210 nt of DNA, taken from NCBI RefSeq assembly GCF_003334785.1, contig NZ_QOWV01000096.1. One strand, written 5' to 3'. The notes under the pieces were generated by a model. It ran no database searches, was not told where the DNA came from, and saw only the letters and a program-made list of their open reading frames with translations. Position 1 is the stretch's first letter. The number at the start of each line of letters is the position of its first letter. Source of the stretch: Escherichia coli. Its GTDB lineage: Bacteria; Pseudomonadota; Gammaproteobacteria; Enterobacterales; Enterobacteriaceae. Of this stretch, positions 1-210 are shown in pieces. The translations under genes were made by a program, and so were the position numbers.

Positions 1-29
1 AGAAAATATCCGGCGGGTTCCGGAGCGCC
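1..29 (-). terminator. Candidate rho-independent terminator for the reverse-strand gene
   Basis: Plus 9-13 tccgg pairs with plus 20-24 ccgga (5-bp GC-rich stem, 6-nt loop cgggtt). An alternative stem is 12-15 ggcg with 26-29 cgcc. Read on the minus strand, the hairpin is followed directly by tattttct (reverse complement of plus 1-8), six T in eight. The stem is short and the T-tract is interrupted, so this is a marginal call. Confidence 0.35.
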
Positions 30-61
30 AGTCTGTAGGTTTATCCATCAATAGAACTCCG

Positions 62-100
62 TCTAATTTAGAAGGAGCTCTAATTTAGTCTGCAAGGAGC
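62..100. repeat. Imperfect tandem direct repeat: tctaatttag + aaggagc, then tctaatttag + tctgc + aaggagc
   Basis: Exact 10-bp tctaatttag at 62-71 and 79-88; exact 7-bp aaggagc at 72-78 and 94-100. The second unit carries an extra tctgc (89-93). Seen directly in the sequence; biological role unknown. Confidence 0.6.
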
Positions 101-210
101 AGGTGTTACAGACGGCATTGGCTTTACGCTTACTTTCATCTCCAGCTTTTCCAGAACAAGCTTTCGCAATGGTAAATTTTGATCCAGTAAGCACGGTTTT
201 GGCCTTTTCG
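63..210 (-). CDS. 3' end of a protein-coding gene, truncated at the window edge; hypothetical protein, Lys/Ala-rich C-terminus with three Cys
   Basis: Reverse-strand ORF with codons running from plus 209 down to 66 and a TAG stop at plus 65-63 (plus-strand cta). Visible translation: EKAKTVLTGSKFTIAKACSGKAGDESKRKANAVCNTCSLQTKLELLLN*. The frame is open at the window edge, so the 5' end is outside. Supporting: a hairpin plus T-tract lies about 38 nt downstream on the same strand, and plus-strand alternatives lack a correctly spaced start codon. Against: no homology recognised, and other frames are also open over much of this span. Confidence 0.45.
   Translation of the reverse strand, partial: EKAKTVLTGSKFTIAKACSGKAGDESKRKANAVCNTCSLQTKLELLLN

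Follow-up and report, generated by a model that had tools for sequence, protein, structure and literature searches.

An IS66-family element nested in the IS30 transposase gene

The window, by which we mean the whole 210-nucleotide stretch of Escherichia coli DNA that was analysed, holds parts of two insertion sequences, both read on its minus strand. Positions 1..133 are the left end of an IS66-family insertion sequence, in which IS coordinate n corresponds to window position 134-n, and positions 134..210 are a fragment of the IS30 transposase gene, nucleotides 350-426, that runs through codon 142 and is broken by the IS66-family element. The IS30 part (134-210) has 100% identity to IS30 in 3528 genomes, and the insertion point lies after codon 142 of 383 of the IS30 transposase; the arrangement is a nested insertion, with the IS66-family element inside the IS30 transposase gene. 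The inserted element is itself ordinary and extremely common. The stretch from window position 1 to 133-139 was matched at 97-100% identity by 3812 of 5426 complete E. coli genomes and by 1159 plasmids, with one to 25 matching places per record, and each match ended at about 133-148. No record among the 5426 complete E. coli genomes, 72,556 plasmids and 50,697 phage records covered 80% of the window, and the 133/134 junction was absent from the same three collections.

A full copy of the element (L001, positions 1093-3633, 2541 bp), used as the reference, carries tnpA-tnpB-tnpC on the strand that corresponds to the minus strand of the window. The TnpC of an identical-ended 2541-bp copy is labelled 'IS66-like element ISEc47 family' by PGAP. 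Against the NCBIfam models, TnpB of the reference copy scored 119 bits for IS66_TnpB (cut-off 50) and TnpC 450 bits for transpos_IS66 (cut-off 180); TnpA remained below its cut-off (66.8 vs 74), yet it matches both IS66 TnpA models. Both ends of the reference copy begin GTAAGCGT and form imperfect inverted repeats, the left one (IRL) reading GTAAGCGTAAAGCCAATGCCGT... and the right one (IRR) GTAAGCGTCAACGGAGCACCGT... (the end is also given as GTAAGCGTCAACGG...), and they are flanked on both sides by the 8-bp duplication GGACGAAA. The window holds one IS end, and its target duplication would be expected in the 8 bp at 134-141.

Within the window, the IRL occupies 104..133 on the minus strand and starts 5'-GTAAGCGTAAAGCC. 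Its tip (window 133..127, minus strand) is GTAAGCG, which is shared by most relatives and provides two TAA codons in the frame of tnpA, at IS positions 2 and 8 in the minus-strand stop list. The first 16 codons of tnpA lie at 1..48 on the minus strand, with the ATG at 48..46; they encode MDKPTDWRSGTRRIFS and are identical to those of the reference copy. The tnpA product is an IS66 accessory protein with an HTH_Tnp_1 domain (Pfam PF01527, E = 2.7e-10). The element shares with the IS66 family (IS679, ISEc8 and relatives) the GTAAGCG terminus in the window and, in the full copy, the imperfect inverted repeats, the 8-bp duplication and TnpB/TnpC. The known features of this family are the tnpA-tnpB-tnpC order, the 8-bp duplication and ends that start with GTAA; the element is a plain member with no difference at the level of the family.

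Stop codons in all six frames of the leader

The first-pass annotation of the window had pointed to stop codons in all six reading frames within 26 bp, at positions 63-88, and direct re-reading of the window recovered all eight stops that it listed. On the plus strand these are TAA 64-66, TAG 69-71, TAA 81-83 and TAG 86-88, in frames 1, 0, 0 and 2, respectively, and on the minus strand TAG 65..63, TAA 70..68, TAG 82..80 and TAA 87..85, in frames 2, 1, 1 and 0. The closure of six frames at 63-88 is real, and nowhere in the 210-nt window is it achieved in fewer than these 26 bp. Of 5000 mononucleotide shuffles of the whole window, 6.2% contained a six-frame island of 26 bp or less, and when the 45 nt ahead of the tnpA start were shuffled with dinucleotides preserved, 21% of the shuffles closed all six frames; the closure is statistically unremarkable and of modest significance.

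The stops had also been ascribed to repeat copies with an offset of 17 nt, and an exact 10-mer, TCTAATTTAG, is indeed present at 62-71 and again at 79-88. It belongs to a longer repeat unit of 17 nt, which on the plus strand reads TCTAATTTAG-AAGGAGC at 62-78 followed by TCTAATTTAG-tctgc-AAGGAGC at 79-100. Tandem Repeats Finder reported nothing in the window; the repeat consists of two copies with a 5-nt indel. The stops are symmetric between the strands because the near-palindrome CTA-AAT-TAG reads TAA/TAG in both directions, and stops occur on both strands because the words TAAATT, TTAGA and TCTAA each contain TAA or TAG on both of them.

The island had further been read as a hard translational boundary, typical of a gene end or an intergenic junction, and this reading holds in part. 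The segment is non-coding, it lies at a junction and an open reading frame ends inside it. The flanking frame that terminates at the island is that of the truncated IS30 transposase, which continues from ...LEKLEMK through VSVKPMPSVTPAPCRLN* and stops at TAG 80..82 (read 82..80, minus strand), 17 codons into the element, so the island does end read-in translation, as this fusion ORF shows. The next gene, tnpA, starts 15 nt past the island (minus strand, 48..46). The island is not, however, a generic gene end: the AT-rich segment forms the core of the 85-bp leader that separates the left terminal inverted repeat from the tnpA start of the IS66-family element. The main value of the stop cluster is that it leads to the correct annotation, since it marks an IS leader and not the end of a gene. 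The boundary that it creates is a real effect, but it is most likely a by-product and not a selected function.

Between the two repeat copies lies a SacI site, GAGCTC (75-80), which is no more than the palindromic centre that arises from the arm complementary to the Shine-Dalgarno (SD) sequence described below and does not point to cloning. A synthetic all-frame stop linker, which this site had suggested, was rejected, the element being natural and present in thousands of copies. Two perfect, Shine-Dalgarno-like AAGGAG words face outwards on the plus strand, at 72-77 and 94-99; on the tnpA strand their complement is the anti-SD CUCCUU. The plus strand has no stop between 89 and the IS tip at 133, and its frame +1, which has a GTG at 103, is open between 67 and 210; initiation of outward translation appears unlikely because this GTG is only 3 nt past the second AAGGAG.

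Leader anatomy and candidate promoter

On the IS strand, the 85-bp leader reads GTAAGCGTAAAGCCAATGCCGTCTGTAACACCTGCTCCTTGCAGA-CTAAATTAGA-GCTCCTT-CTAAATTAGA-CGGAG-TTCTATTG-ATG. It is made of 17-nt self-complementary units that are bounded by TTAGA...TCTAA, and the two 10-mers are the junctions of these units. The upstream copy (79..88; TCTAATTTAG, or CTAAATTAGA on the IS strand) provides a candidate -10 box and the foot of the 5' arm of a predicted hairpin, and the downstream copy (62..71, the same sequence) provides the tip of that hairpin, UCUA-AAU-UAGA.

The candidate -10 hexamer, TAAATT (82..87, minus strand), is the core of the upstream 10-mer, and its TAA is an in-frame stop 39 nt before the ATG. 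In a set of 26 distinct leaders, which are described below, the T, A and T of the corresponding TAnnnT box (window 87..82) never vary, and in an ISEc8-like group of these the box appears as TGnTAACTT, an extended -10. A candidate -35 hexamer, GTAACA (104..109, minus strand), with 4/6 matches, was picked up in the inner part of the IRL by a looser in-house scan and would be separated from TAAATT by a 16-nt spacer. A consensus sigma-70 promoter scanner gave no site at threshold in the window or in positions 3250-3700 of the reference record, and the proposed promoter therefore draws on the conservation of TAnnnT and on the looser scan. From these sequence features, TAAATT is probably the -10 box of the tnpA promoter.

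A predicted hairpin over the tnpA ribosome-binding site

The SD sequence of tnpA, GGAG, is located at 57..60 on the minus strand, 8 nt before the ATG. In the predicted fold of the leader RNA it is paired with CUCC (window 77..74) as part of a hairpin at 52..82 (minus strand), which reads UAGAGCUCC-u-UCUA-aau-UAGA-c-GGAGUUCUA. The leader is thus predicted to form a stem-loop with the transposase SD in its 3' arm, the configuration expected of a structure that sequesters the SD. Folding of the 71-nt leader (window 100..30) gave a minimum free energy of −17.6 kcal/mol with z = −2.8, and the hairpin was the main element of this fold. For the 43-nt segment around the hairpin, the predicted energy was −15.7 kcal/mol for the sense strand vs −11.4 kcal/mol for the antisense strand. 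A scan against Rfam at E <= 10 returned noise only, the hits being to a snoRNA model and to the ClpQY promoter with 13-14 bits vs gathering scores of 40-42.

Two other structures were noted. In a 131-nt fold, the IRL segment CCGTCTGTA paired with codons 4-6 of tnpA; this pairing was dropped, as relatives lack the complement. At window 24..9 on the minus strand, in tnpA codons 8-13, lies a terminator-like hairpin, TCCGGAACCCGCCGGA and then TATTTTCT; it is not conserved in related elements and is probably due to chance.

Conservation of the leader among relatives

Related leaders were collected by a TnpA-based scan with one genome per species, which gave 35 loci, and searches of plasmids, viruses and metagenomes added more. 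When viral contigs were scanned with the 14-nt IRL tip, only 4 of the 120 stretches obtained proved to be real elements; a protein-based viral scan gave almost no new leader variants and the metagenome scan gave 5 loci. The resulting comparison set contains 26 distinct leaders, whose TnpA proteins are ~49-68% identical to that of the window, and the leaders align nearly without gaps when they are anchored on the start codon.

Across the 26 leaders the register of the hairpin is fixed relative to the ATG (i+j = −38). In this register 78.5% of cells are paired and the covariation score is 0.203; sliding the partner by 1-3 columns lowers these values to 25-36% and 0.02-0.10, respectively. Both sides have changed at 8 of the 16 pairs, with replacements such as C-G/G-C and A-U/G-C. 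In the subgroup to which the window belongs, pairing reaches 92% of cells and one pair runs through G-C, G.U and A-U; covariation is non-significant there, where there is too little variation. The consensus energy from RNAalifold over the 26 leaders is near zero (−0.24 kcal/mol, sense), and the weakness of this sense consensus is in keeping with conserved C.A mismatches that the ISEc8-like leaders carry on the sense strand. A hairpin that abuts the start codon is also present in the more distant relatives L163 and L166.

Direct repeats with a period of 16-17 nt were seen in other leaders as well: L026 carries TTAGACGCCCACCTAA and TTAGACGGGCACCTAA, and L163 carries GTGGACAC twice. The periodic self-complementary unit is thus a trait of the family and not peculiar to the window.

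These comparisons bear on whether the stop cluster is just a chance feature of an AT-rich spacer, without function. The stop property alone would allow it, being reproduced in 6% of the window shuffles and 21% of the local shuffles, but the underlying sequence is kept in register and in pairing across elements whose TnpA is ~49-68% identical to that of the window, and an exact 10-mer repeat in 210 nt is itself unlikely, at an estimated probability of roughly 0.02. We consider a chance origin disfavoured and highly improbable.

A function of the stops themselves was also weighed. The island could be a translational insulator, keeping ribosomes of the disrupted gene away from tnpA or from the synthesis of N-terminally extended TnpA fusions; the truncated IS30 ORF does end in it, at TAG 82..80. 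Of 27 distinct leaders, 25 have all three sense frames closed somewhere from the IS tip to the ATG, vs 17.6 expected from shuffles, and 14 of the 27 close six frames over the whole leader vs 8.1 expected, although the leaders are interrelated and are not independent samples in either count. In every 85-nt leader the triplet 39 nt ahead of the ATG is either TAA or TAG, but its invariant T and A are the first two bases of the TAnnnT box. The conserved tip GTAAGCGTAAA adds two TAA codons in the tnpA frame. Closure of six frames is nevertheless not conserved: many relatives close only 1-2 antisense frames, so that half of the six-frame claim is missing in them, the 1-nt shorter loop of the 84-nt leaders shifts the upstream stops to other frames without compensation, and several leaders lose one frame in the last 45 nt. 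Local composition, moreover, is enough to close six frames in about a fifth (21%) of shuffles. Selection of the island as an insulator is therefore judged unlikely.

The palindrome and the 17-bp direct repeats could alternatively act as double-stranded DNA, as an operator at which the HTH protein TnpA, or the transposase, would repress the tnpA promoter. The HTH repressors InsA (IS1/IS2) and OrfA (IS3-family) bind the promoter-bearing end of their elements, at the terminal inverted repeats. The element in the window likewise encodes a small upstream HTH_Tnp_1 protein, in the Pfam family of the IS3-type OrfA proteins, and its repeats adjoin the putative promoter, with the putative -10 box on one side and the ribosome-binding site on the other. 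The TTAGA...TCTAA dyad symmetry with its 17-bp period, and half-site sequences that change between subgroups as TnpA diverges, would also fit an operator. The repeats of the window, unlike the InsA and OrfA sites, are internal, occur at the left end only and have no fixed arm spacing. In relatives with preserved stems, the arm-to-arm distance, which is the loop of the hairpin, varies between 3 and 14 nt, where an operator bound by a dimer would call for fixed spacing, and this variation favours a nucleic-acid hairpin over a protein site of fixed spacing. It is the complementarity that is conserved rather than the sequence, and neither the right end nor any other part of the element contains the repeat words, which speaks against symmetric transposase-binding repeats. 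By this analogy an operator is conceivable, but we hold it to be quite unlikely.

The ISEc8-like subgroup (L007, L008, L010, L012, L016, L161 and relatives) shows a different pattern in the stem. Its leaders carry 3-4 conserved mismatches on the sense strand in the 40 nt before the ATG, all of which are C.A and none a transversion. Since C.A on the sense strand is G.U on the antisense strand, an uninterrupted antisense stem of 16-17 bp results, and the predicted folds of this subgroup differ by about 11 kcal/mol, at about −21.5 kcal/mol for antisense vs about −10 kcal/mol for sense. These models hint at an outward antisense RNA or at a bottom-strand DNA hairpin. A small antisense RNA transcribed outwards across the tnpA ribosome-binding site from the opposite strand, analogous to art200 of IS200 or to RNA-OUT, the antisense RNA of IS10, might block translation by pairing, and it would be compatible with a sense hairpin. 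There is a precedent in IS200, in which a leader hairpin and the mirror-image antisense sRNA art200 coexist (PMC4513863). In our scans of the relatives, however, there was no positionally conserved antisense promoter, no U-tract terminator follows the antisense stem and no match to Rfam was obtained. The sense fold is the more stable one in the element of the window (−15.7 vs −11.4 kcal/mol), the G.U changes in new members of the window's own subgroup fit the sense strand only, and four transitions in the same direction would arise without selection with a chance of ~1 in 8. Such an antisense RNA appears decidedly unlikely as the explanation of the island.

Proposed control of tnpA and comparison with known systems

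In light of these data, the best reading of the whole locus is that the segment is a translational control leader of the IS200/IS10 type, in which the stop codons are a by-product; we put its probability at about 0.6. According to this model, pairing of the anti-SD CUCC with the SD GGAG should hold down translation of tnpA. The transcription start is predicted ~7 nt past the -10 box, near window position 75 and inside the 5' arm, and transcripts from the native promoter would miss the anti-SD arm and could be translated. A transcript entering from outside, in this case from IS30, would contain the complete hairpin and be silenced, and the stops would still terminate read-in translation. The proposed logic would combine the read-in protection of IS10/IS50 with an SD-sequestering stem like that of IS200.

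In IS200, the stem-loop of the leader sequesters the SD of tnpA and blocks binding of the 30S subunit (PMC4513863). The predicted structure in the window resembles it in being a stem-loop of a transposase leader with the SD in the 3' arm and in being an inverted repeat, so that both strands can fold, and very low translation of the transposase would be expected here too. The families are nonetheless unrelated, IS200 having a Y1 HUH transposase and the element in the window a DDE transposase. The stem of IS200 (nt 69-138) is far longer and was demonstrated by experiment, whereas the hairpin in the window is a prediction, and IS200 has a separate terminator hairpin at its tip, which the element in the window lacks.

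Protection from outside activation by 'fold-back inhibition' has been reported for IS10 and IS50 (Davis, Simons & Kleckner 1985; Krebs & Reznikoff 1986; Schulz & Reznikoff 1991). What the element in the window would share with these systems, as we propose, is a start of its own between two complementary segments, so that only read-in transcripts would occlude the ribosome-binding site. It differs from them in that its start is predicted from the TAnnnT box only, in that it is without Dam-methylation control and in that any antisense partner is hypothetical.

More broadly, and only tentatively, the leaders of enterobacterial IS66-family elements may hold an undescribed, positionally fixed RNA control module. 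It would consist of a hairpin that occludes the ribosome-binding site and a -10 box placed so that only read-in transcripts have the full stem. The stem of the ISEc8-like leaders, perfect only on the antisense strand, would hint at an RNA-OUT-like RNA, and the 17-nt units might let the leader alternate between a single long hairpin that closes off the SD and two short ones that show the SD in a loop. What is somewhat novel in the present analysis is the hairpin and box that IS66-family leaders conserve; the rest is ordinary. No description of the leader, promoter or hairpin of IS66-family elements turned up in searchable papers, the defining ones of Han et al. 2001 and Gourbeyre et al. 2010 lying outside this search.

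If the model is true, the hairpin would explain how an element that often lands in transcribed genes, in this case that of another transposase, escapes activation by the transcription and translation of its host, and it would add a DDE family to the short list of elements in which such control has been worked out (IS10, IS50 and IS200). In the plasmids and prophages of pathogenic E. coli, Shigella and Klebsiella, elements of the IS66 family belong to the most abundant insertion sequences, and to our knowledge the restraint of their expression is essentially unstudied.

A further feature of the leader concerns the inner IRL, where the word CCGTCT (IS strand, window 115..110) recurs in inverted form over the ribosome-binding site as AGACGG (window 63..58). 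The repeat is absent in the L003 type, and in the ISEc8-like subgroup it matches the subgroup's own IRL at 9/11 nt. Judged by its sequence, this IRL-like word could be an internal transposase-binding half-site or a coincidence.
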